Positions 2,381-44,520 of a DNA stretch of 44,735 nt are shown here, piece by piece. Position 1 is the first letter of the stretch. Every line of letters starts with the position of its first letter. The notes under the pieces are model-generated. The model ran no database searches. It saw only the letters and a list, made by a program, of their open reading frames with translations, and was not told the DNA's origin. The stretch lies in sequence record PZ166175.1. One strand, written 5' to 3'. The DNA comes from a phage. The position numbers and the translations under genes were made by a program.

Positions 2381-2458
2381 TGGCGCTCCGCACTGGATTC
2401 GAACCAGTAACCTACGACTTAGAAGGTCGTTGCTGCTATCCGATTGAGCTAGCGGAGC
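2381..2458 (-). tRNA. tRNA-Arg (anticodon UCU), with encoded CCA
   Basis: hand-folded cloverleaf: 7-bp acceptor stem GCTCCGC/GCGGAGC, anticodon stem ACGAC/GTCGT with loop CTTCTAA, T-arm ACTGG-TTCGAAT-CCAGT, discriminator G, CCA. Confidence 0.85.
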
Positions 2459-2818: not shown

Positions 2819-3058
2819 CTATTCGTACAACGATTGACCATTCTCATCATGACCAACACGACCCTTAAGATAACCGCTAGTCCAAACAAATCTGTCCCGA
2901 CTAATGATTGTGAACACTGGCTTCCACATCTTAGAAATCAATGCCGCAACCTGCTTATCGTCCTTGCGCTGCCTTGTCGATAGCTTGCTATACTCCTCGT
3001 TTAACTTTGCCGCTTGGCGTTTAACTGCGTTAAAGTGCGCTTCTGATAATCCGAACAT
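2819..3058 (-). CDS. hypothetical protein (79 aa)
   Basis: ORF track; start overlaps the stop of the upstream small gene (TAATG). Confidence 0.45.
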   Translation of the reverse strand: MFGLSEAHFNAVKRQAAKLNEEYSKLSTRQRKDDKQVAALISKMWKPVFTIISRDRFVWTSGYLKGRVGHDENGQSLYE

Positions 3059-3198
3059 TAATTCAACCCCCTGTTAAAGCTTGCAGTCACTTCCATCATA
3101 TCCCCATCGCAAACGAACTCGTCGCCATATTTCTCATTGAAGTAAATTAAATCATCCACAAACTCTTCTTCATAATAAAATTTACATGTGTTCTTCAT
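3058..3198 (-). CDS. hypothetical small protein (46 aa, MKNTCKFYYEEEF...)
   Basis: hand translation; RBS GAGATTGAGAA before ATG; promoter cassette immediately upstream; below the ORF-track size cutoff. Confidence 0.4.
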   Translation of the reverse strand: MKNTCKFYYEEEFVDDLIYFNEKYGDEFVCDGDMMEVTASFNRGLN

Positions 3199-3214: not shown

Positions 3215-3276
3215 TTGTTGGTAATGTCATTATATGCCATTCGTGTCAGATGCTTTTAGCTATTCGTGCTATTTTT
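3215..3276 (-). promoter_or_regulatory. early promoter cassette (palindrome + 22 bp + TATAAT)
   Basis: minus sense: AAATAGCACGAATAGCTAAA, 22-nt spacer, TATAAT. Confidence 0.5.
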
Positions 3277-3392
3277 ATCTTCTCTCTCCTTCCATAGATT
3301 CATCAGTTAAAAGTACTGCATAGCCTCTTAGCCAGTCTTAGCCTCATCCATTATTCTTTTAGCCCACTGGCTTGGTAATTCGTAGTTGTCCA

Positions 3393-3554
3393 TTAGTAAA
3401 TTATTACCTCGTCTTTTGAGAGGTAGATATCTTCGCCATTCTTGTTCTTTACGATGTAGCAACTACCATCATCACTCATCTCTGCGAAGAACACATCGCC
3501 GCGCTGAATTAGCGCCACATAATCACTCTCGCCAACATAAACAACCTTAATCAT
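3393..3554 (-). CDS. hypothetical small protein (53 aa)
   Basis: hand translation MIKVVYVGESDY...; RBS AAGGTG; stop overlaps next ATG. Confidence 0.35.
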   Translation of the reverse strand: MIKVVYVGESDYVALIQRGDVFFAEMSDDGSCYIVKNKNGEDIYLSKDEVIIY

Positions 3555-3572
3555 AGAATCACCTTACTTAAA

Positions 3573-3692
3573 TTATAGTTCGTTAGAATGCGTTTTAGCT
3601 TCATCTACTGATGCCGAAATTATGTAAATAATGGCGAAGCCTATAGACCAAAGTAACCACGGTAGAGCCTCAGCAAAAAGCTCGTCTATCAT
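3573..3692 (-). CDS. hypothetical small membrane peptide (39 aa)
   Basis: hand translation MIDELFAEALPWLLWSIGFAIIYIIS...; one hydrophobic helix; weak RBS. Confidence 0.3.
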   Translation of the reverse strand: MIDELFAEALPWLLWSIGFAIIYIISASVDEAKTHSNEL

Positions 3693-3717
3693 TAACCCTG
3701 TGTGCGTATCGCCACCC

Positions 3718-3915
3718 TCAGATTTTGTTAAGTTGCTCAAGAATTTCGTATGCTAGCTCTCGGGCCTGCTCTTCGGTTAAGTGAATGGTGTGAACCTGAG
3801 GTTCATCTCTCATCCCACACGCCTGGGCAATAATGAATGTTGCGTAGCCATCGAAGTGGTTGGCCTGGAGCTTTGGTTCTGATTGTTGAAATCTCATTTC
3901 TTCTTCCTCGTTCAT
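3718..3915 (-). CDS. hypothetical protein (65 aa)
   Basis: ORF track; promoter cassette directly upstream. Confidence 0.5.
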   Translation of the reverse strand: MNEEEEMRFQQSEPKLQANHFDGYATFIIAQACGMRDEPQVHTIHLTEEQARELAYEILEQLNKI

Positions 3916-3980
3916 TTCGATGGGGTAACTATAGCAAGTTACCCCAATACTGTTTTAGCAATTAGTGCTATTTAGCATTC
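3905..3980 (-). promoter_or_regulatory. early promoter cassette
   Basis: minus sense: AAATAGCACTAATTGCTAAA, 22 nt, TATAGT, TACCCCATCGAAATG; box lies in a GGGGTAACT/AGTTACCCC inverted repeat. Confidence 0.5.
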
Positions 3981-4111
3981 TTTGACAACTTCACACCACT
4001 TAATAGTTCCCCCAAGAACCCTCTGCTGATCAAATGCTTCTTTAAAATCCTCATAAACCCGAACATGCTTCACGCTGTTAAATTTACCAGTGTTGTACGT
4101 ATGGATGTAAA

Positions 4112-4336
4112 TCATTTCTTTGTCACCTCATCCCAGTTAGTCAGGTATGCCGCATTAACGCTAAGCGCCTCGTATTTGCGTGATGACTCGAAGTCACTGA
4201 CGTCGAACTGCTGATTGTTGATCTGCTTAACTACCTCTTTTGCAACCGCGATATGCTCTGATGGCGTATGGTAGCTGAATTGAACAAAGCTCTTCAGGAT
4301 TACTGCGTCTTTCTCTGACAGGTTAATTGTAATCAT
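4112..4336 (-). CDS. hypothetical protein
   Basis: ORF track 4112..4375; start moved to the ATG with AAGGAAAA RBS (MITINLSEK...). Confidence 0.45.
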   Translation of the reverse strand: MITINLSEKDAVILKSFVQFSYHTPSEHIAVAKEVVKQINNQQFDVSDFESSRKYEALSVNAAYLTNWDEVTKK

Positions 4337-4346
4337 ATTGTTTTCC

Positions 4347-4451
4347 TTAGTTGTTGAAATACGCGTAAAACTCAAAATAACTCATGTATGATAAGAATCC
4401 AAAAATCAAAATAACCGTCAATACAACTAAAGCTTCAAATGACTTTGGCAT
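4347..4451 (-). CDS. hypothetical small membrane peptide (34 aa)
   Basis: hand translation MPKSFEALVVLTVILIFGFLSYMSYFEFYAYFNN; RBS GAGAGGAAG; cassette upstream. Confidence 0.4.
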   Translation of the reverse strand: MPKSFEALVVLTVILIFGFLSYMSYFEFYAYFNN

Positions 4452-4454
4452 TTT

Positions 4455-4528
4455 TTCTTCCTCTCGCTTGGTGTGGGCTAACTATAACAAAACCCGCCGG
4501 ACCGGGTTTAGCAATTCGCGCTATTACC
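4455..4528 (-). promoter_or_regulatory. early promoter cassette with terminator-like hairpin in the spacer
   Basis: minus sense: AATAGCGCGAATTGCTAAA, 22 nt containing a CCCGG..CCGGG hairpin, TATAGT. Confidence 0.45.
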
Positions 4529-4780
4529 ACCACTAATTGATTTAGACGATTCATGAATCATCTTCTGCCCGTAAAGCTCCTTAGATTTCTGTAATGAATC
4601 AATCGAGTCATTGAGGTCGGTAAGGTAACCCTTATGGCCTCGTAGCCCAAGGCACAATAGCTTCTTGATTGCGTGCTGAGTTGCCGGGTCTGCCACGTGG
4701 AATGCATCTAGAACGCGATATACATCCACCGTAGTTACTGTTCCATCCAGGCTAATAATTTTACGTTCGTACTTGCTCAT
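4508..4780 (-). CDS. hypothetical protein (90 aa)
   Basis: ORF track; ATGA start/stop overlap with the upstream small gene. Confidence 0.5.
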   Translation of the reverse strand: MSKYERKIISLDGTVTTVDVYRVLDAFHVADPATQHAIKKLLCLGLRGHKGYLTDLNDSIDSLQKSKELYGQKMIHESSKSISGGNSANC

Positions 4781-4860
4781 ATCTCAATCCTCGTTATTGT
4801 GCCGCCATGCGTATTAAGCATGAGTTTTGCGTATTTTTCGTCTACATAGTGCAGGAGCAT
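4777..4860 (-). CDS. hypothetical small protein (27 aa)
   Basis: hand translation MLLHYVDEKYAKLMLNTHGGTITRIEI; RBS AGGGGTG; ATGA overlap with downstream gene. Confidence 0.3.
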   Translation of the reverse strand: MLLHYVDEKYAKLMLNTHGGTITRIEI

Positions 4861-4972
4861 ATCAGCACCCCTGATGCTGAACTTATGTTCGTATATGGTC
4901 AATAAAATTCCTTTCGTGTGGTTGATATGGGGATTATACCAGTCAGGATGAATCCCCTTTTAACGAAAGGTT

Positions 4973-5077
4973 CTATTTGATAAACACCAGAAAAATAATC
5001 ACCAGGAGCAGGGTCGCCAATGATAATCCAAGCATCAACAGTTGCATCAACAGTTGCATCACATCAGATGACTTCAT
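4973..5077 (-). CDS. hypothetical small membrane peptide (34 aa)
   Basis: hand translation MKSSDVMQLLMQLLMLGLSLATLLLVIIFLVFIK; ATGA overlap with upstream gene; contains a 12-bp tandem duplication. Confidence 0.35.
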   Translation of the reverse strand: MKSSDVMQLLMQLLMLGLSLATLLLVIIFLVFIK

Positions 5078-5283
5078 ATCGCCTCCGCCTCGTACGCCGC
5101 CAGGATTAATGCCGCCGCCAGTTTGCGGGCTTGATCAGGGCTGTATCGCATAACCGTCTGGCCGTCTCCATTGTCGTAAGGATCGAAATCCAGATACACA
5201 ACCGCTCCTTGATCGGCGCTACCTATACTTACCTCAGCCCGATCAAAGCACTGATCTTCTACTAGAACAGCTTCCATAATCAT
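5074..5283 (-). CDS. hypothetical protein
   Basis: ORF track 5074..5331; start moved to MIMEAV... after RBS AAAGAGGAAA because the cassette box lies inside the longer ORF. Confidence 0.45.
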   Translation of the reverse strand: MIMEAVLVEDQCFDRAEVSIGSADQGAVVYLDFDPYDNGDGQTVMRYSPDQARKLAAALILAAYEAEAI

Positions 5284-5284
5284 T

Positions 5285-5356
5285 TCCTCTTTGTTTTCGA
5301 TGGGGTAATCATAGCTGACTACCCGATCCATTGTTTAGCAATTCGTGCTATTTACC
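5285..5356 (-). promoter_or_regulatory. early promoter cassette
   Basis: minus sense: AAATAGCACGAATTGCTAAA, 22 nt, TATGAT, TACCCCATCGAAAAC. Confidence 0.5.
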
Positions 5357-5441: not shown

Positions 5442-5990
5442 CTACTTTGTTTTCTTAATCATTTCCTGATAAGCGTTAATCATTGTAACGGCGCCCTTAA
5501 GCTCTTCACCTTCCAAGCCCGCAACGCTTGGTGACAGCTTGAGTAGTCTAGACTTAAACTTTTCAATGATGGCCGCCTCTTTCTCTGCTTCCTGCTTCTT
5601 CTTCTCACGATTGCCGGTCCAGTGAGCGCCGTCCTCAATATAGATTACCAGGTATTTATCAGCACCATCGCCATCGAAATTACCCGGCCTGGTTTGCTCG
5701 CCTTCATCGTCAATCCAGATGAACTTGTAGCGCGCTCGCTTGTCGGCGTCTCGTAGTTCATTCATTCGCGACACGGTATTGTAGATGTACGAGTTCTTTA
5801 GTTCAGGCATCGCCCTGTCTGCCAGGTTTAGTATCTCGTCAGTCTCTTCGTCATACTCCATTTCGGGATATGGCTTGCCGCGAACAAGTTTGAATATCTG
5901 GCTTACCGGAACTTTGAACTCGCCGTTCTCAGACGCCATTGCGTTACGCACCATCTCACGGATAACTTCGCCAAGTGTTACTTTCTGCAT
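5442..5990 (-). CDS. hypothetical protein (182 aa), first gene of the leftward early operon
   Basis: ORF track; RBS GAAACGAGG. Confidence 0.55.
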   Translation of the reverse strand: MQKVTLGEVIREMVRNAMASENGEFKVPVSQIFKLVRGKPYPEMEYDEETDEILNLADRAMPELKNSYIYNTVSRMNELRDADKRARYKFIWIDDEGEQTRPGNFDGDGADKYLVIYIEDGAHWTGNREKKKQEAEKEAAIIEKFKSRLLKLSPSVAGLEGEELKGAVTMINAYQEMIKKTK

Positions 5991-6287
5991 GTTGATACCT
6001 CGTTTCGTTTACTTCGTTTCAGTGATTGCCATCTTGCCACTTGTTTACGTGTCGGTCAACGTATTTTTATGTCTATTCCATCGCGTATACGTTTTTTCGG
6101 CCTTCAAGGTAGCGTCAGCACTGGTTGTAAACGCGCCGTATCCCCTGTATACCGTTTTTGAGGGTACTTTCCTATATATGTGCCTTTTTATTCCTACAAT
6201 GTCATCCCTTTCCTACAAGTGTCAGAATATCTGCGCGGAACATATCAATTATCTCACCAATGATCGGTATACACAGTATACATATAT

Positions 6288-6308
6288 ATAATAATAATAA
6301 TAATAATA
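6288..6308. repeat. (ATA)7 microsatellite inside a block shared with 24125..24187
   Basis: ataataataataataataata read directly; paralogous block has (ATA)5. Confidence 0.8.
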
Positions 6309-6519
6309 AAGTAAAATGTTGATATATATAGATATTATATTGTATATCGTGTGTATATCTCGCGTAAAAACGTAGGTTAGTGTTCGCTAACTTTTGTGAC
6401 GACACTGAGTATACATGGGTTACGCGTATGCGAAAAATGGCCCGGCAAGAATAAAAATCAACTTGTATGGTAGTCCTTCAATCCTTCATTCACTCACCCA
6501 CCACTTCATTTCACTTTTC

Positions 6520-6605
6520 GCAACAATCAAAAACATCATTGCATCTGAAGCAATATTGCTATATGTGCAATAATCACGTGAATCATTGCAATATCTGCAA
6601 CAATA
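6520..6605. repeat. iteron-like array, five GCAAYAAT copies plus GCAATATTGC and CACGTG palindromes
   Basis: gcaacaatc, gcaatattg, gcaataatc, gcaatatct, gcaacaata within about 85 bp of non-coding DNA. Confidence 0.5.
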
Positions 6606-6616
6606 CATAAATCTTA

Positions 6617-6691
6617 CGAATAGCACTTTTTGCTAAAGACATTAGGGTCTGGTGGGGCTATAGTTAACTCACCAACAGCGAGGGTGTAGAT
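6617..6691 (+). promoter_or_regulatory. early promoter cassette (plus orientation)
   Basis: AATAGCACTTTTTGCTAAAG, 23 nt, TATAGT, then RBS and ATG at 6692. Confidence 0.5.
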
Positions 6692-7305: not shown

Positions 7306-7466
7306 TGCTATTACCATCTGAGATAAATTATTTCGATCTTGAGGTTATAAGCGCCTATAGCGGAAAGGGCTGGCCTTGCGGAGACTGGTTCCGCGAAGAC
7401 CTGCTTGAGAGCCATGAAATTATGATCAAGGCGATAGAGAAGGCACGAAATAGCACTAATTGCTAA
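7302..7466 (+). CDS. hypothetical small protein (54 aa)
   Basis: hand translation MMLLPSEINYFDLEV...; ATGA overlap with upstream gene; 3' end runs into the next cassette palindrome. Confidence 0.35.
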   Translation: MMLLPSEINYFDLEVISAYSGKGWPCGDWFREDLLESHEIMIKAIEKARNSTNC

Positions 7467-7519
7467 AGCCCTTCGGGGATTTTCCTGTATATTCATCTCA
7501 TCGAAACGGAGGATTTGAA
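7445..7519 (+). promoter_or_regulatory. early promoter cassette
   Basis: AAATAGCACTAATTGCTAAAG, 22 nt, TATATT, CATCTCATCGAAAC, GGAGG, ATG. Confidence 0.5.
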
Positions 7520-7858: not shown

Positions 7859-8278
7859 ATGACCATTAATTACTGCAAGATAACTGCCGGATGGAACAAA
7901 ACCACAAATAACTGGGTTAGCAACGAAAACGTACTCTACAAAGCTCGCGTTAAAAAGGTTCACCAATGGGTTGATGGTGTAGTTAAGGAGGTGGAATTTA
8001 AGCAAATCAAGAAAGATGGAAAATGGATTAACCTTGAAGAGCGCGGAAGATACATTAAGACTAAAACTCTTTACGTTACCCGAGTTAACCATAACTCGTC
8101 AGTTAAGAAGTCATTTAAGCTCGGAAAGAGATACCAGGTATCTATGCATGCTGGGATTGGACAAAATGCTGGGTATATTTATGACGAAGATGGTAATGCC
8201 TGGCAGCTTTACCGAAGTGAGGATGTTGGGTTCTTTACTCTCTGTGGCACGTACTATTTTGAGGCTCAATATCTGTAA
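7859..8278 (+). CDS. hypothetical protein
   Basis: ORF track 7835..8278; start moved to the ATG after GAGAGTAAAAAA. Confidence 0.5.
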   Translation: MTINYCKITAGWNKTTNNWVSNENVLYKARVKKVHQWVDGVVKEVEFKQIKKDGKWINLEERGRYIKTKTLYVTRVNHNSSVKKSFKLGKRYQVSMHAGIGQNAGYIYDEDGNAWQLYRSEDVGFFTLCGTYYFEAQYL

Positions 8279-8352
8279 ATAGCACAAATTGTTAATGAAT
8301 TATAAGCGGTCGTTGTTATAATGGCCGCTCAGAAACAACACGGAGAGAAGTA
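8277..8352 (+). promoter_or_regulatory. early promoter cassette with consensus TATAAT
   Basis: AAATAGCACAAATTGTTAA, 22 nt, TGTTATAAT (extended -10), then RBS GGAGAG and ATG at 8353. Confidence 0.5.
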
Positions 8353-9936
8353 ATGTTTGATTTCAACGAAGATAAACTATCTGTTGAACAGGTTATGGCA
8401 ATTGCTGCCGCAGAAAACCTTCCACCTTTGCGCGTCGCCATTAATGCTAATGGATATCGCCAGTCTCAATCATTCTGGAAGGCTCCGGTCGAGATTGATG
8501 CAGCTAATGACAAGTATCCAGTAATCTCACTCGGCAATGATGTTGATGTTGTTGGTAAATTGTCAGCTAACATTGCTCGGAGCGTGCAATTCCCCGAGTC
8601 TTCAGCTTACATGCACTTCCTGGGGTGTATTTCCGCTGCGATGCTAGGCCGCTTTACCGTTGAGTATCACGGAACTCAGCAACCGACCTCGCTTTATGTT
8701 GTGACGAGCCAGCCTCCATCTACAGGTAAATCAGCAATAAACTCACTTTCTATTGCTCCAATGATTGCTGAGACTGAGAGACTGAATGAAGTGCGAAAGC
8801 GCGAGCGCAAAAAGATTATGGCTAAACTATCTGCGTTATCCAAAGAGATGAAGCAGGAAAAATCCCCGTCAGAGATGGCTTCTCTTTTCGAGGAGAAAGA
8901 GGAGTTGGAGGAAAAACTCGAGAAACTATGCGATATCGTTTTCCCGGTTTCAGATACCACACCGGAAGGTCTTGCGCGAATAAACAACCGTCAGGGCAAC
9001 TTTGCAGTAATCTCGGATGAGGCAACGAGTGTAAACTCACTACTTGGCATGACCTATGGTGACGGATCAAAGAAAACGAACAGTGAGCTTGTGCTTAAAG
9101 CATGGGATGCGGGTAACGTATCTATCGCGCGTGCGAACGCAGAAAGCAACATGAGTTTCGTTGCTATGGGTTGTATCTCTGTAATTGCGCAGGATGAGAC
9201 TATTAACGCCATCATGAATGCTGGTGCGCGTGGTATCGGTGTGTCGGAACGTTTTCTTCTTGTACGTGAAAAATCACTCCTGGGAGAACGTGTATTCGTT
9301 GATGAAAATGGTGAATCAACTTACGAGCCAATTGACGGTGGGCTGAAGTCTGACTACTTCCGATTGGTTCACGAAATAATGAATGAGCAAGATGTAAAGT
9401 TGACGGTAAGTAACTCAGCGATGAAATACCTCAACCTAGCGCGTCAGGAAATGGAACCTCACCTTGCTGACGGCGGGAAGTATTCACACACAATGTTGCG
9501 AGGCGCGTTGGGTAAGTTCGATAAGCAGGCAATCAGGATTGCGGCTGTTCTTCACACTGTGCGTAACTGGTTCAACCCAAATGGCGGTAGCCCGCAGAAG
9601 TCCAGGGAGATTGATCTTGACACAATGCAAGAAGCTGTGATTATGTTCCAGGAGTTGAGCAAAACTTATCTGTCATCTGCTAACGCCGCTGGTCACGCTG
9701 GCGACAATGCCGAGATGAATAAGCTGATTGATATTCTGATTAAGCAAGGCAAGAACGGTAAAGGCGTAGTTGGTATTCGTTCATTATATGAAGCGGCTCG
9801 TAAAGTTAAGCCGTTCGAGGCTCAGGCTGGAGTAATGACGAAGATTAAAGATCACCTACTGCCAATGCTTGACGAGAAAAACTACACGTGCCTGATTGGT
9901 GATAAAGTTTACATTAATCCGCGATTGCTGGGGTAA
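8353..9936 (+). CDS. hypothetical 527-aa protein with P-loop-like and DE-box-like motifs
   Basis: ORF track; motifs PPSTGKS and VISDEAT read from the translation; own cassette promoter; no family confidently recognised. Confidence 0.6.
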   Translation: MFDFNEDKLSVEQVMAIAAAENLPPLRVAINANGYRQSQSFWKAPVEIDAANDKYPVISLGNDVDVVGKLSANIARSVQFPESSAYMHFLGCISAAMLGRFTVEYHGTQQPTSLYVVTSQPPSTGKSAINSLSIAPMIAETERLNEVRKRERKKIMAKLSALSKEMKQEKSPSEMASLFEEKEELEEKLEKLCDIVFPVSDTTPEGLARINNRQGNFAVISDEATSVNSLLGMTYGDGSKKTNSELVLKAWDAGNVSIARANAESNMSFVAMGCISVIAQDETINAIMNAGARGIGVSERFLLVREKSLLGERVFVDENGESTYEPIDGGLKSDYFRLVHEIMNEQDVKLTVSNSAMKYLNLARQEMEPHLADGGKYSHTMLRGALGKFDKQAIRIAAVLHTVRNWFNPNGGSPQKSREIDLDTMQEAVIMFQELSKTYLSSANAAGHAGDNAEMNKLIDILIKQGKNGKGVVGIRSLYEAARKVKPFEAQAGVMTKIKDHLLPMLDEKNYTCLIGDKVYINPRLLG

Positions 9937-11689: not shown

Positions 11690-11765
11690 CGTTTCGATGT
11701 GGTAATTATGCCGCATTTCTGCGGCATTGGTTAGGCAAAAAGTGCTATTAGCTAAACATTTTAGG
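11690..11765 (-). promoter_or_regulatory. variant early promoter cassette with hairpin TGCCGCAGAAATGCGGCA
   Basis: minus sense: TTTAGCTAATAGCAC, hairpin, CATAATTACCACATCGAAAC. Confidence 0.35.
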
Positions 11766-12884
11766 GCGACAAATGAAGCGGCCAACTTCACCGAATTCTT
11801 TATGGTAGACAATAACTGCCGCTTGACGTTGAGAGCGCCAGCCGCCATTTGCGGAGTACGCGTCAGGACTCCCCAGCTGTCCATGCACCTCATCAATTCC
11901 CAAGTTTGTTTCTGTAATCTTCTGAGAATGCCAGTGGCCACTATGTGTGTAAACATACTCACTTTGACCAAATAACTTACGAAAATCAGTTGCCATAACA
12001 GTTAGTCGAGTATCGGCTTTCCGCATTTGGTGCCCGTGAGTGTATCCAATAAGCGTCTTTCCAAAGCTGGTCATCATCATTGCAGCAGGGCTAACATCAA
12101 CATTTACGCGAGGCTCATCTTCATAAAATGCAGCAAGCGCAGCGCGGAGCCAAACCATTCCAGCCTCGTCGTGATTCCCACTTATTACTTTAATATCAAT
12201 AACTTGATGCTTTTCCATCATTCGAGAAATTGCACGTCGCACTGACCGGATTGCCACATAAACAATTTTTGCGTAACGACTGTCAGAATCTAAGATATGA
12301 CCCGAGGCCGGGGTTTTAGCCTCCAGGGAATCGTAATGTAGGAAATCGCCACCCAATACCAATACAGCATTCTTAGAGTTTGGTGCCTTATCTACAGCGT
12401 AGTCAAAGAACCCATTCATAACCTTCTCTGCTGTTGCTGTGTCGTAGTTTTCGCCACACTCGTGTTTGTGTGCCATTGCTCCAATGTGTAAATCAAAAAC
12501 TGGATACATCGCAAGCGTGTTATCATCAAAGTTAACATTCGGTGATTCGGATGGAATGGCCTTTGGCAAATCAGAGCAGAATGCCTCACGTGCTTGCTGC
12601 ATTAAAACCTCAAGTCGCTCATTGTCTATTGAGGTTTTAACCCAGCGAATCTTCTCGTTGCCTCTCGCGTCAATCAATGTTGAAGTCCCTTTGACCAAAT
12701 AGCCGTCAGGAACCAGCTTCTTAATCCCTGGGTTTCCATGAAGCTCGCCGGATTTTGCCAGCTTACTACGACGCAATTCAACGTTGCGAATGTTCATTCC
12801 GTACTTCTCTGCGATTGCTTTGTTCGTCATGCCATTTGCCAGTTCTTCGCGCAATTGTTCGTTGGTGATTTTTGCAGTTGCCAT
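11748..12884 (-). CDS. calcineurin-like metallophosphoesterase with N-terminal HTH-like segment
   Basis: motifs DLHIG, GGDFLHYD, GNHDE, GHQ, GHWH in canonical order; N-terminal MTNKAIAEKYGMNIRNVELRRSKL resembles an HTH. Confidence 0.65.
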   Translation of the reverse strand: MATAKITNEQLREELANGMTNKAIAEKYGMNIRNVELRRSKLAKSGELHGNPGIKKLVPDGYLVKGTSTLIDARGNEKIRWVKTSIDNERLEVLMQQAREAFCSDLPKAIPSESPNVNFDDNTLAMYPVFDLHIGAMAHKHECGENYDTATAEKVMNGFFDYAVDKAPNSKNAVLVLGGDFLHYDSLEAKTPASGHILDSDSRYAKIVYVAIRSVRRAISRMMEKHQVIDIKVISGNHDEAGMVWLRAALAAFYEDEPRVNVDVSPAAMMMTSFGKTLIGYTHGHQMRKADTRLTVMATDFRKLFGQSEYVYTHSGHWHSQKITETNLGIDEVHGQLGSPDAYSANGGWRSQRQAAVIVYHKEFGEVGRFICRPKMFS

Positions 12885-14689: not shown

Positions 14690-14757
14690 TGTTTCGTTTC
14701 GATGGAGTAACTATATCGCATCCATGCGAAATCCCTTTAGCAATTCGTGCTATTTTG
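14690..14757 (-). promoter_or_regulatory. early promoter cassette
   Basis: minus sense: AAATAGCACGAATTGCTAAAG, 22 nt, TATAGT, TACTCCATCGAAAC. Confidence 0.5.
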
Positions 14758-17165: not shown

Positions 17166-17187
17166 ATCTAAATTCCTGTAAAAATTG

Positions 17188-17218
17188 TCTTGTAGCGTTT
17201 AATTGAGTACAATAATAC
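17188..17218 (+). promoter_or_regulatory. sigma70-like promoter candidate (TTGTCT, 17 bp, TACAAT)
   Basis: read directly upstream of the 17267 gene in the divergent helicase/regulator intergenic region. Confidence 0.35.
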
Positions 17219-17266
17219 CATCAAATAAGGATGACTTTTAACAAAAAATGCTATTGAGGTAATGAA

Positions 17267-17749
17267 ATGAATGCAGTAGACAAGCGAACCATTAACGGCA
17301 ATAACGGAACCATCCGCACCGAAGACAAAAAGAAACGTAAACGACCTTCAGGCTACTACGTTTTAAAAGATGAAGTAAGGGCCGGGCTACGCGCGCGGCT
17401 AGAGATTGTTCTTGATTTCTTCGGCACAAAGGCGAATATCGCAAAGCAGTTAAAGGTAACACCACAGGCCGTAGAAGAATGGTTTAAGCGCGGCATGATT
17501 TCTGCGCGTGGCGCCCAGCTATCGCACAACTACTATAAGCGAAATGGAGAAGGCTTTCGCGCTACATTCTGCCGCCCAGACCTGCAATTCGACGGTAACG
17601 GCAAGCCGCTAACCCTGCGGTGCAAAAAACGTCATATGCTGCGTGTTGTTACTGAGGCCGAATTAGCCACCAAGCCAGAGTGTCGATCATGGCGCAAGAT
17701 TAAGGCCGCTAACGAGGCAGCACGAAAAGCTAAAGAGCAAGGGAAATAG
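17267..17749 (+). CDS. putative DNA-binding protein (HTH)
   Basis: ORF track; segment TKANIAKQLKVTPQAVEEWFKRG resembles an HTH; basic N-terminus. Confidence 0.45.
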   Translation: MNAVDKRTINGNNGTIRTEDKKKRKRPSGYYVLKDEVRAGLRARLEIVLDFFGTKANIAKQLKVTPQAVEEWFKRGMISARGAQLSHNYYKRNGEGFRATFCRPDLQFDGNGKPLTLRCKKRHMLRVVTEAELATKPECRSWRKIKAANEAARKAKEQGK

Positions 17750-17802
17750 CACGAATTGATAAACAGTGGCGCTATACATTGTGTATAGTGCCTTTATTGT
17801 TT
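17745..17802 (+). promoter_or_regulatory. early promoter cassette
   Basis: AAATAGCACGAATTGATAAAC, 22 nt, TATAGT, then RBS GGGGGTAA and ATG at 17803. Confidence 0.5.
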
Positions 17803-18741
17803 ATGGGGGTAACTATGAGTCACCATGATAAGAACGAAGTGATAGCAAAAATGAAGGGAATGTGGAGTGAATTCTACTTGTCTCATTTAGGATGGAACAG
17901 AGAAAATCTTAGCAAGAAGCATGGACCATGCCCGAATTGCGGAGGTCGTGATAGGTTTCGATTCACTGATGAGCTAGGACAAGAAAAAGGAAACGGAGCA
18001 GCAATATGCAACCAGTGCGGAAATGATTCCGGTGTTGGCTGGGTTATGAAATGCTCGGGAATGAGTTATAGCGAAACAATAGATACGCTTGGTGATTGGC
18101 TGAATCTAGTTCCGGTGGAGGTTATATCAAAAGCAAACAAAAGAGCATCAAGAACTTCACCGTATAAGATGGGTGCTCAAATGGATCATGAAAAATGCTG
18201 GGAGATAATGAGGAGAACTGAGGTTGTTGAGTCAAGCCCGCTGACACAGTATGAAGGTATCTACAGCGAGTTTGGTTTTGATGTTGGCAGGACAAAATCA
18301 GGAGAACTAATACACGCACTGCCGTGCTTTATGGCTTATAGTGACGGTATATCAGAAGAAATGTGCAATGTAATGTTTATCAATGAAGAGGGGGATGTTA
18401 GTTATGCTGCAAAAGATTACACTCGCCAGTCTGTTTCTGTTATTGGTTCCTTTAAGGATGATGAGTACGCTTATCTGGTCGATAATTTCATTGACGGCTA
18501 TCGCGTTCATCTTGCTACTGGAAACCGCTGCGTGCTTGTTTGCTACTCCAGTTACAACATGGAAATGGTTGCTTACGCGCTCAAAGATTTCAAGTTAAGA
18601 GTCGCTTGCACTCGCCACGATTTTGATTTACTTGCCGTTGCTGACGATCGCAATCTTGATGTTGTAATGCCAAATGACGATAACCACTTCAAATCAGGAA
18701 TAAGAAAGCGAATATACAAAGCAAGCGAATTACTAGACTAA
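17803..18741 (+). CDS. DNA primase-like protein with N-terminal zinc-binding domain
   Basis: ORF track 17779..18741, start moved to ATG after RBS; motif HGPCPNCGGRDRFRF...CNQCG typical of primase zinc-binding domains. Confidence 0.6.
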   Translation: MGVTMSHHDKNEVIAKMKGMWSEFYLSHLGWNRENLSKKHGPCPNCGGRDRFRFTDELGQEKGNGAAICNQCGNDSGVGWVMKCSGMSYSETIDTLGDWLNLVPVEVISKANKRASRTSPYKMGAQMDHEKCWEIMRRTEVVESSPLTQYEGIYSEFGFDVGRTKSGELIHALPCFMAYSDGISEEMCNVMFINEEGDVSYAAKDYTRQSVSVIGSFKDDEYAYLVDNFIDGYRVHLATGNRCVLVCYSSYNMEMVAYALKDFKLRVACTRHDFDLLAVADDRNLDVVMPNDDNHFKSGIRKRIYKASELLD

Positions 18742-18759: not shown

Positions 18760-18825
18760 ATGCCTGAAAGATGATACAATCCAATTTAGCAATTCTTGCT
18801 GTTTTACAAATGGAGACTTTACACA
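18760..18825 (+). promoter_or_regulatory. tail fiber promoter candidate (TGATACAAT) with palindrome TTTAGCAATTCTTGCTGTTTT downstream of the -10
   Basis: extended -10-like TGATACAAT then the cassette-type palindrome between -10 and start codon. Confidence 0.4.
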
Positions 18826-22584: not shown

Positions 22585-22665
22585 TGCTAACCTCGCTCGT
22601 TGTTGATTGGGTAATCATACCACAACTTTTAATTTCGTCTTTAGCAATTCGTGCTATTTATATTT
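22585..22665 (-). promoter_or_regulatory. early promoter cassette
   Basis: minus sense: AAATAGCACGAATTGCTAAAG, 22 nt, TATGAT, TACCCAATC. Confidence 0.5.
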
Positions 22666-23824: not shown

Positions 23825-23900
23825 CGTGTCTCTCTGGTTGTTTGATTTCGATGGGTTAACTATATATTCGGCGAAGTAGCCAGTCCAATTGGTTTTGCCA
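23825..23900 (-). promoter_or_regulatory. degenerate early promoter cassette
   Basis: minus sense: TTGGCAAAACCAATTGG, spacer, TATATAGTTAACCCATCGAAA; upstream palindrome differs from consensus. Confidence 0.35.
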
Positions 23901-24158: not shown

Positions 24159-24283
24159 AGAGTAAAAGGTTGATATATATAGATATTTTAATGTAACCAA
24201 TGCGTAACTAGGCGTAACAGGGCGTATATCATTTTTCGCGGATTAGATTGCATACATCGAGTTACATCGGTTACGTGTATGCA

Positions 24284-24367
24284 ATAGCACGAATAGCTAA
24301 AGACATTCCGCAGAGACAGCTGTATTATTACCACGTCGAAACTAAGCAACTTAACAAGGAATGCAAG
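24284..24367 (+). promoter_or_regulatory. early promoter cassette
   Basis: AATAGCACGAATAGCTAAAG, 23 nt, TATTAT, TACCACGTCGAAAC, AAGGAA, ATG. Confidence 0.45.
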
Positions 24368-30744: not shown

Positions 30745-30815
30745 TCCTCTTGTTTCGATATGGTAACTATAACCCATCTTTCAAAATCGCCTTTAGCAAT
30801 TTGTGCTATTTAGCT
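30745..30815 (-). promoter_or_regulatory. early promoter cassette inside the late tail operon
   Basis: minus sense: AAATAGCACAAATTGCTAAAG, 22 nt, TATAGT, TACCATATCGAAAC, AGAGGAG, ATG. Confidence 0.5.
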
Positions 30816-35924: not shown

Positions 35925-36000
35925 TAATTCCTTCATTTCGTTTCGATGAGTTAACTATACAGGAAGATTGCATTAACGCTTTAGCAAAAAGTGCCATGCA
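35925..36000 (-). promoter_or_regulatory. early promoter cassette inside the late operon
   Basis: minus sense: CACTTTTTGCTAAAG, 22 nt, TATAGT, TAACTCATCGAAAC. Confidence 0.45.
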
Positions 36001-38580: not shown

Positions 38581-38644
38581 TTTTGTCTCCTTTGTTTATC
38601 TGATTGAGTGATTATAACCCAACAATTCCATTTGGTACAGACGT

Positions 38645-44444: not shown

Positions 44445-44520
44445 TTTTTTCTCCTCTCGTTTGTGTAAGTTAACTATAAGCCATCCGTGTCTTTGGTGTT
44501 TAGCAATTCGTGCTATTTAA
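44445..44520 (-). promoter_or_regulatory. early promoter cassette overlapping the TerL stop codon
   Basis: minus sense: AAATAGCACGAATTGCTAAAC, 22 nt, TATAGT, TAACTTACACAAACGAGAGGAG, ATG. Confidence 0.5.

Follow-up and report, generated by a model that had tools for sequence, protein, structure and literature searches.

T1 is a classic coliphage, and how its genome is transcribed has stayed unclear; annotation has turned up hardly any sigma-70 promoters in its family. The same question is raised by the phage sequence PZ166175.1 (44,735 nucleotides, here called the window, meaning this whole stretch), in which a promoter-like cassette recurs directly upstream of genes on both strands: which protein reads it? 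An original prediction had described the cassette as a palindrome at a fixed distance from a TATAGT-like -10 box, found at 16 places, and had taken these for early promoters that depend on one dimeric, perhaps phage-encoded activator. Our analysis indicates that the cassettes are very probably promoters. It further suggests that an asymmetric consensus marbox, to which the host activators MarA, SoxS, Rob and RamA bind, is a better description of the upstream element than a palindrome, and we regard it as somewhat probable that a host activator of the MarA/SoxS/Rob family binds this box and drives the cassettes as class II sigma-70 promoters.

The window covers the complete genome of an Rtp-like phage (Drexlerviridae, Braunvirinae), in the orientation opposite to that of the Rtp record. 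By tblastn, 59 Rtp proteins were placed in it, in the same order as in Rtp. The nearest public records are E. coli Veterinaerplatzvirus phages with 86-89% DNA identity, none of them identical.

The cassette consists of the 20-mer AAATAGCACGAATTGCTAAA (the box), a variable spacer of 20-21 nt, a TATAGT-like -10 hexamer, a start region with the consensus TACCCC-A-TCGAAAC (also written TAhCnC-A-TCGAAAC), a ribosome-binding site (RBS) and the start codon. There are 17 copies in the window where less than one is expected by chance, and every copy points toward the gene downstream of it. The inverted repeat TAGCA-N5-TGCTA has 8 exact matches (0.06 expected), and the 20-mer 13 matches with at most three mismatches (0.01 expected). 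The genome was searched with a position weight matrix built solely from cassettes of other phages (302 in number). This matrix recovered all 16 places of the earlier list, one of which, near 23825 (core at about 23868, minus strand), has the -10 and the start region but no upstream box. A strong box (at least 24 bits) together with a strong -10/start module at an offset of 36 or 37 was found at 12 sites, given here by 20-mer start and strand: 3274-, 3973-, 4526-, 5353-, 6618+, 7448+, 8277+, 14755-, 22659-, 24282+, 30811- and 44518-. The matrix scan scored the box as strong and the core as weaker at 17744+, and the core as strong and the box as degenerate at 11750- and 35999-. Two copies are additional to the earlier list, namely 17256-, which is the helicase promoter, and approximately 4977-, which has a very degenerate box.

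Counted from the end of the 20-mer to the hexamer, the spacer is 20 nt, with 21 nt at 6618 and 24282 and 19 nt at the helicase promoter; the 22-23 nt given previously, which were counted from TGCTA, are the same distance. A control with 300 dinucleotide-preserving shuffles of the window, in which this spacing might have turned out to arise by chance, came out in its favour: the window contains 14 instances of a marbox-like site followed after 20 or 21 nt by TAnnnT, whereas the shuffles have 0.77 on average and 6 at most. Among the gap lengths, 20 nt stands out sharply with 12 sites, and 21 nt follows with 2. All copies lie at gene boundaries and at most overlap a stop codon. The distance from predicted start to start codon is mostly 16-40 nt, and the 20-mer begins about 68-92 nt from the start codon where the latter is clear. 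The genes behind the cassettes comprise early small-gene blocks and genes for replication and recombination, lysis, tail, and portal and head. As cassettes precede lysis, tail and portal/head genes too, they appear to be general phage promoters and not an early class, and the designation as early promoters has to be given up.

The promoter-like character itself is borne out by the -10 at a fixed distance, a G at -14, an A at the predicted +1 and short leaders. G occupies -14 in 73-83% of the family copies (83% of 179 distinct cassettes, which were anchored on the -10/start box only), and in a separate set of 316 cassettes anchored on the 20-mer the predicted +1 is an A in 76%. Of 15 window copies, 4 have TGn in front of the hexamer. 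A test for canonical sigma-70 promoters failed: no TTGACA-like hexamer is found 16-18 bp from the -10, and positions -35 to -30 read AAAnnn. Only three cassettes were flagged as sigma-70 promoters, via TAAACA or AAGACA, and the window shows no enrichment of sigma-70 consensus matches (44 versus 39.8 expected). As had been pointed out, TTGCTA is too far away to be a -35 hexamer, lying 22-23 bp from the -10; it was also rejected in that role together with some other -10, as none was found 17 bp downstream. A sigma-32 reading of CCCCAT was discarded because CTTGAA is absent 13-15 bp upstream. Since sigma-70 promoters are not enriched here, and since the re-annotation of phage TLS gives only three sigma-70-like promoters (PMC11447400), the early genes would need a promoter that uses pre-existing host factors.

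The start region TACCCC-A-TCGAAAC (-6 to +8; e.g. 5294-5307) is conserved across the family including T1, and it also occurs without the upstream box (in the core at about 23868, minus strand). Promoter escape, leader stability and translation are candidate roles. Two -10/start cores lack a marbox, both on the minus strand. The core at 23840-23868 (TATAGT TAACCC, then ATCGAAAT) lies upstream of the rtp46 and RecE homologues, and that at 38590-38620 follows the terminator of the major capsid gene. Each may be a decayed cassette or a promoter that needs no factor.

Three cassettes hold a terminator-like hairpin of the upstream gene within the promoter spacer (4490-4509, 7468-7485 and 17768-17792), an arrangement that is also found in the distant relative L124 (3165, 6426). 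The T-run of the terminator provides the TGn of an extended -10, e.g. CCCGGTCCGGCGGGTTTTGTTATAGT, which gives a very compact terminator-within-promoter layout. The -10 of two copies (3973, 5353) is part of a 9-bp hairpin whose changes appear to compensate each other. We nevertheless rejected a conserved structure at the RNA or DNA level as the explanation of the cassette: hairpins differ or are absent in the other copies, several of them are terminators of upstream genes, and no Rfam family matches the cassette copies.

The cassette is present across the family, in T1, Rtp, TLS and IMG/VR contigs. Rtp has 13 copies of the box with at most four mismatches, in the same layout as in the window, and T1, despite only distant DNA similarity, has 9 copies with at most three. 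An exact-pattern scan of IMG/VR yielded at least 120 stretches on more than 40 contigs, which are 39-52 kb long except for one of 346 kb. Boxes at orthologous positions are kept between the window, Rtp and T1, and the intergenic DNA around them has diverged. Because the box is identical while its flanks fell to about 50-60% identity, selection acts on the box itself. The record of “Vibrio phage Vc1” (MT360682) is T1-like and carries the cassette; as it has 49,833 bp, the same as Escherichia phage phi2013, we treat its Vibrio host label as doubtful and have dropped it as a non-enterobacterial test case. About twenty “Campylobacter phage” records (MG065688 and related) are also T1-like phages with host labels that look doubtful.

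The repeat is already known; its mechanism is not. Wietzorrek et al. reportedly described ten conserved inverted repeats upstream of genes in the Rtp genome in 2006, with Rtp52 as the proposed binder. The 2024 re-annotation of TLS, in its available part, reports a 21-nt intergenic repeat aaATAGCACnnnTTGnTAAAA, also present in T1, Rtp and Rogue1, and leaves open whether it functions as a stoperator, an enhancer site or a UP element (PMC11447400). This is the same element: the window boxes have the consensus aaATAGCACnnnTTGnTAAAA, are intergenic, run the same way as transcription and lie about 76 nt 5' of start codons, so that orientation to genes and start-codon distance agree. A fixed -10 partner and a marbox identity go unmentioned in the available part of that account (PMC11447400). 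Full-text literature searches found no publication linking the marbox to T1-like phages.

The marbox as derived from chromatin immunoprecipitation, GCAnnWWnTGnnAAA, is non-palindromic and oriented (PMC12052159). The phage consensus GCA-CG-AA-T-TG-CT-AAA has zero mismatches to it, and 12 of the 13 perfect matches in the window are listed boxes. Likewise, the contact pattern of MarA, TTT-7X-CGTG (PMC8811837), equals CACG-AATTGCT-AAA of the phage. Across the family, a marbox with no or one mismatch starts exactly at -47 in 154 of the 179 cassettes and at -48 in another 15. The logo of these cassettes from -52 to -31 reads A-A-A-T-A-G-C-A-C-(T/G)-(A/T)-(A/T)-T-T-G-(C/T)-T-A-A-A-A-C, and its variation follows the marbox code, with C (.60) or T (.35) at -37, where the code has Y, and A or T at -41 and -42, where it has W. 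An older 19-mer marbox consensus, AYnGCACnnWnnRYYAAAY, is matched with zero to two mismatches by every window cassette.

All 17 cassettes carry the box in the forward direction, AAA being nearer to the -10 than GCAC. It extends from -50 to -31 (centre -40.5) and so overlaps the -35 position; a forward direction, overlap with the -35 and a centre between -36 and -55 characterise class II marboxes (PMC12052159). The class II position assigned to the upstream element at the outset, with a centre at about -41/-42, is thus confirmed. The two-fold palindrome for a dimer is not. The C at -44 is conserved in 87% of copies and AAA at -35 to -33 is nearly invariant, neither having a dyad partner; 35% of copies have a T at -37 that breaks the dyad, and there is one orientation only.

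The geometry can be compared with that of E. coli promoters. In MG1655, micF has AGCACTGAATGTCAAA in the forward direction, then 20 nt, TAGAAT and 7 nt to the annotated 5' end, and fumC has ATGGCACGAAAGACCAAACA and 21 nt to TAATAA, provided that this is its -10. In the mar promoter the marbox runs backward and has CACG and TTGCTAAA in common with the phage box. The nfo promoter was dropped as a third geometry control because its -10 could not be placed with confidence. In the micF complex solved by cryo-electron microscopy, RamA is centred at about -41 and touches sigma region 4 (PMC8811837). The phage cassettes resemble micF and fumC in box sequence, forward direction, overlap with the -35, a distance of 20-21 nt to the -10, a centre at about -41 and a weak -35 of the AAAAC(A) kind. 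Unlike these promoters, they belong to a virulent phage with about 17 copies per 45-kb genome, which would drive nearly every transcription unit, and they add the conserved start region TACCCC-A-TCGAAAC; their box is far nearer to the consensus than chromosomal marboxes are, and activator binding is in their case deduced from sequence. A phage-encoded MarA-like protein was considered and rejected: a search of the window for proteins like MarA, SoxS and Rob found none (best E-value 0.17), and no such protein is listed in the T1 and Rtp annotations. Asymmetry, strict orientation, a zero-mismatch marbox and the spacing of micF together make a host protein likelier than a phage dimer.

From what is directly observed, i.e. 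the repeat, its spacing and orientation, its family-wide conservation and the match to marbox promoters in sequence and geometry, we infer the start sites, the binding protein and the direction of regulation as follows. The cassette would be a sigma-70-type class II activator-dependent promoter with a good -10, often G or TG at -14/-15 and no usable -35, and transcription would start at the conserved A seven bases downstream of the -10. Starts are thus predicted, give or take 1-2 nt, at 3222, 3921, 4474, 5301, 6671, 7500, 8329, 11698, 14703, 17205, 17796, 22607, 24335, 30759, 35947 and 44466, and near 17220 for the regulator gene described below. A monomeric activator with a pair of helix-turn-helix (HTH) motifs (MarA, SoxS or Rob; RamA in Klebsiella) would bind the marbox and contact sigma region 4 and the C-terminal domain of the alpha subunit, as at E. 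coli micF. As Rob is constitutive and MarA and SoxS rise under stress, the promoters would fire straight after infection without any phage activator being made. A box that lies within a leader would hinder transcription, both of the tail-fibre gene and of the regulator gene described below, whose box is shared with the divergent helicase promoter. With rather more doubt than conviction, we extend this proposal to the whole T1 family (Drexlerviridae), which may have wired nearly all of its transcription onto MarA, SoxS and Rob (and RamA) via near-perfect class II marboxes, so that its gene expression would begin without a phage factor and would be modulated by compounds that activate these regulators (bile salts, oxidants, salicylate or antibiotics).

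Several points weigh against host activators. Without inducers Rob is largely sequestered and inactive, cells that are not under stress contain little MarA and SoxS, plain broth supports vigorous growth of T1-like phages, and classical selections for T1 resistance give fhuA and tonB mutants, not rob, marA or soxS. It is therefore unlikely that the phage depends absolutely on these activators, and they may boost the cassettes rather than being strictly required. Conservation also reaches a little further than the marbox core (A at -52/-51, TT at -40/-39), most copies have A instead of Y at position 19 of the 20-bp marbox consensus, and the 5+5 bp dyad TAGCA-N5-TGCTA is real and suits a Cro-like dimer. 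Every family member has a regulator with its own sigma-70 promoter and a leader box, which fits a cascade with a phage activator. Finally, the likeness to the marbox was noticed after many host regulators had been considered; this carries a multiple-comparison cost, which is offset by the independent match in geometry.

The regulator (17267-17749, plus strand) is a homologue of Rtp52 and T1 gp23 with 160 amino acids, assigned as Cro-like by profile and structure-model matches. The Pfam match to the P22-Cro-like HTH (E-value 4e-6) is below the curated cut-off, and an AlphaFold2 model (pLDDT 86.6) matches two all-alpha Cro proteins, Xfaso-1 Cro and N15 Cro, best, weakly by E-value (0.03-0.2) and with a TM-score of about 0.7 on the target. 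The gene has its own sigma-70-type promoter, TTGTCT-17-TACAAT at 17185-17213. A canonical promoter precedes it in every subfamily (e.g. TTGAAT-17-TATAAT in T1), with the box just upstream of the RBS. The regulator is found in 825 phage records and is co-extensive with the family; phylogenetic profiling of regulator versus motif was uninformative because both are universal in the family. That of MG065688 is 100% identical to the regulator of the window. The second HTH protein named in the original prediction, encoded by the open reading frame (ORF) 11748-12884 (minus strand), gave weak Metallophos (calcineurin-like phosphoesterase) matches only and is a homologue of T1 gp16, which is annotated as an SbcD-like exonuclease, so that the HTH assignment stood for the regulator but not for this protein.

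That this regulator is made first, binds TAGCA-N5-TGCTA as a dimer at -42 and activates all cassettes, acting like lambda CI at PRM and repressing its own gene and the tail-fibre gene via their leader boxes, is an alternative that we consider unlikely. It is said to be the kind of reading proposed for Rtp52 in the 2006 Rtp genome paper. Its strengths are the family-wide occurrence of a regulator with a Cro-like fold (weak by E-value), the regulator's canonical promoter in all subfamilies, the 10-bp spacing of half-sites, which suits an HTH dimer, and the enrichment of the box as a dyad; moreover, a cognate HTH protein is encoded and a site lies near its own gene. Lambda CI at PRM and the C-proteins of restriction-modification systems resemble this arrangement in having a site near -42, a weak -35 and a Cro/CI-like protein, here phage-encoded, and in those systems the same protein represses from other positions. 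Their sites are symmetric and co-vary with the protein, whereas the phage box is asymmetric and does not track the recognition helix. Only 5 of 10 mirrored pairs in the box are complementary, with AAA(A)C at -35 to -31 and AA at -52/-51 unpaired. Helix 3, the recognition helix, varies widely between subfamilies (TPQAVEEWFKRG, SNQTVQGWKERN, TLKVVWGWKERG, CCVRLTNAYRLRG) and the box is identical. Thus, a Cro-like candidate for the single phage-encoded dimer does exist, but an asymmetric, oriented box and a variable recognition helix speak against it. With such a cascade, the perfect marbox match in sequence, direction and spacing would be a coincidence, and the early host-takeover genes could not be switched on before the activator had been made.

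Conservation within the regulator is highest not in the HTH but in a disordered basic N-terminal stretch (residues 1-45, 17267-17400), DKRTINGNNGTRRGxDKKxRKRP, in which D5, R7, G11, N12, N13, R17, D20 and R24 are invariant; a C-terminal block, FCRPDLxFDxNGKPL..RC, is conserved too. The invariant N-terminal basic arm and an RGMIS motif are possible DNA readers.

Less likely still is a site shared by both parties, at which host MarA, SoxS and Rob would activate early and the phage regulator would later compete via the dyad to shut off or re-time the promoters. Such sharing would account for a box that is a perfect marbox and a dyad at once, for the independent promoter of the regulator and for boxes at non-promoter positions. 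It shares the difficulty of the variable recognition helix with the cascade, and it adds a second putative interaction.

The boxes at non-promoter positions include one in the tail-fibre leader at 18785-18804 (minus strand; AAACAGCAAGAATTGCTAAA), which is backward, has no -10 at 20 nt and lies just downstream of the -10-like TGaTACAAT (18772-18780). This location downstream of a -10-like box, recognised from the start, is conserved in Rtp and T1, the distance between the two differing by 9 nt in T1. The box is a candidate site of repression or a roadblock.

The remaining alternative, in which an extended -10 suffices and the 20-mer is a UP-like enhancer, a stoperator-like roadblock or the relic of a duplicated module, can draw on the common G at -14, the TGn of some window copies, the two cores without a box (23868, 38620) and the proposals in the TLS paper (stoperators, enhancer sites or UP elements; PMC11447400), but is very improbable, since UP elements, tracts at -57 to -38 contacted by the C-terminal domain of the alpha subunit, are A/T-only whereas the box has invariant G and C (GCAC, TTGC; positions -47, -46, -44 and -38), since a roadblock needs no exact 20-nt distance to the -10 and since the box stays identical across phages in diverged flanks. 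In line with this, tests for a UP element and for an L5-type stoperator both failed, the latter because 14 sites lie exactly 20-21 nt upstream of a -10, although the orientation fits; no integrase is listed in the annotated Rtp and T1 genomes. T4 middle promoters (MotA box plus AsiA) are similar in that they combine a sigma-70 -10 with a phage-specific element in place of the -35, with TGCT inside. In T4 the centre of the MotA box is at -30 and its distance from the -10 is 11-13 bp, whereas the phage element ends 20 nt from the -10.

The individual cassettes are distributed over the genome as follows, beginning with the minus-strand copies of the left part. Cassette 1 (3215-3274) has the box AAATAGCACGAATAGCTAAA with one mismatch in the marbox core, a 20-nt spacer, TATAAT and a predicted +1 at about 3222, and lies 5' of a 46-amino-acid ORF (3058-3198). 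Cassette 2 (3914-3973), 5' of the rtp11 homologue, combines a perfect marbox with the extended -10 TGcTATAGT and TACCCC followed by ATCGAAA. In cassette 3 (4467-4526; box TAATAGCGCGAATTGCTAAA) the spacer holds the terminator-like hairpin AAACCCGGTCCGGCGGGTTT, whose T-run makes TGtTATAGT. The very degenerate box ATAGAACCTTTCGTTAAAA and the core TGgTATAAT form cassette 4 (4918-4977), an orthologue of Rtp 1365, and cassette 5 (5294-5353) has the consensus 20-mer, a 20-nt spacer, TATGAT and TACCCC, then ATCGAAAAC. A single tRNA-Arg gene (anticodon TCT) is located at 2381-2458 (minus strand), as in other T1-like phages.

On the plus strand, cassette 6 (6618-6678), with GAATAGCACTTTTTGCTAAA, a 21-nt spacer and TATAGT, is the first promoter of the rightward small-gene block. 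It adjoins an A/T-rich, non-coding region of about 600 bp (5990-6618) that separates two divergent small-gene blocks and is the counterpart of the genome-end region in the Rtp record; TCATTGCAAnnnnnGCAACAAT recurs there in three degenerate copies (6240, 6506, 6583), alongside several short palindromes. Cassette 7 (7448-7507) has AAATAGCACTAATTGCTAAA, the hairpin GCCCTTCGGGGATTTT in its spacer and TATATT, and cassette 8 (8277-8336), with AAATAGCACAAATTGTTAAT and TGtTATAAT, lies 5' of a DUF3987 protein (8353-9936). Back on the minus strand, cassette 9 (11691-11750) precedes the rtp62 homologue, holin, endolysin and spanin genes with a degenerate box, TAATAGCACTTTTTGCCTAA, and a strong core, CATAAT TACCAC then ATCGAAAC. 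Cassette 10 (14696-14755), 5' of the rtp55-60 homologues, has the consensus 20-mer, TATAGT and TACTCC, again followed by ATCGAAAC.

The helicase promoter, cassette 11 (17198-17256, minus strand), has the box CAATAGCATTTTTTGTTAAA, a perfect GCAnnWWnTGnnAAA, and TATTAT; its box (17237-17256) sits in the leader of the divergent regulator gene. At the other end of that gene, cassette 12 (17744-17803, plus strand; AAATAGCACGAATTGATAAA, TATAGT) precedes the primase gene, its spacer and -10 lying within the regulator gene's terminator hairpin. A weak extra box, AGGCAGCACGAAAAGCTAAA (17715-17734, plus strand), is found 29 bp upstream of cassette 12 in the 3' end of the regulator gene. It is forward and centred near -70 of the primase cassette, and may be a tandem site.

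Cassette 13 (22600-22659, minus strand), with the consensus 20-mer and TGgTATGAT, lies 5' of a 77-amino-acid ORF and the Erf and SSB genes, and cassette 14 (24282-24342, plus strand), with CAATAGCACGAATAGCTAAA, a 21-nt spacer and TATTAT, lies 5' of a cor-like lipoprotein gene. The last three are on the minus strand. Cassette 15 (30752-30811; AAATAGCACAAATTGCTAAA, TATAGT, TACCAT then ATCGAAAC) precedes a 119-amino-acid ORF and the tail genes K, I and J. Directly after the terminator of the major tail gene, cassette 16 (35940-35999) has a degenerate left half, GCATGGCACTTTTTGCTAAA, a perfect marbox core and TATAGT TAACTC then ATCGAAAC. Cassette 17 (44459-44518; consensus 20-mer, TATAGT) has the large terminase gene on one side and the rtp22 homologue with the portal and head genes on the other.

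Should the reading with host activators fail, the cascade with the Cro-like regulator would be the next candidate. If the reading with host activators holds, a large and ubiquitous family of enterobacterial phages depends on, or is boosted by, the regulators of intrinsic antibiotic resistance. The 60-bp cassettes would then be ready-made compact marbox promoters. Such a dependence would also explain the fast start of these phages, and it would bear on combinations of phages with antibiotics and on the behaviour of phages in the bile-rich gut.

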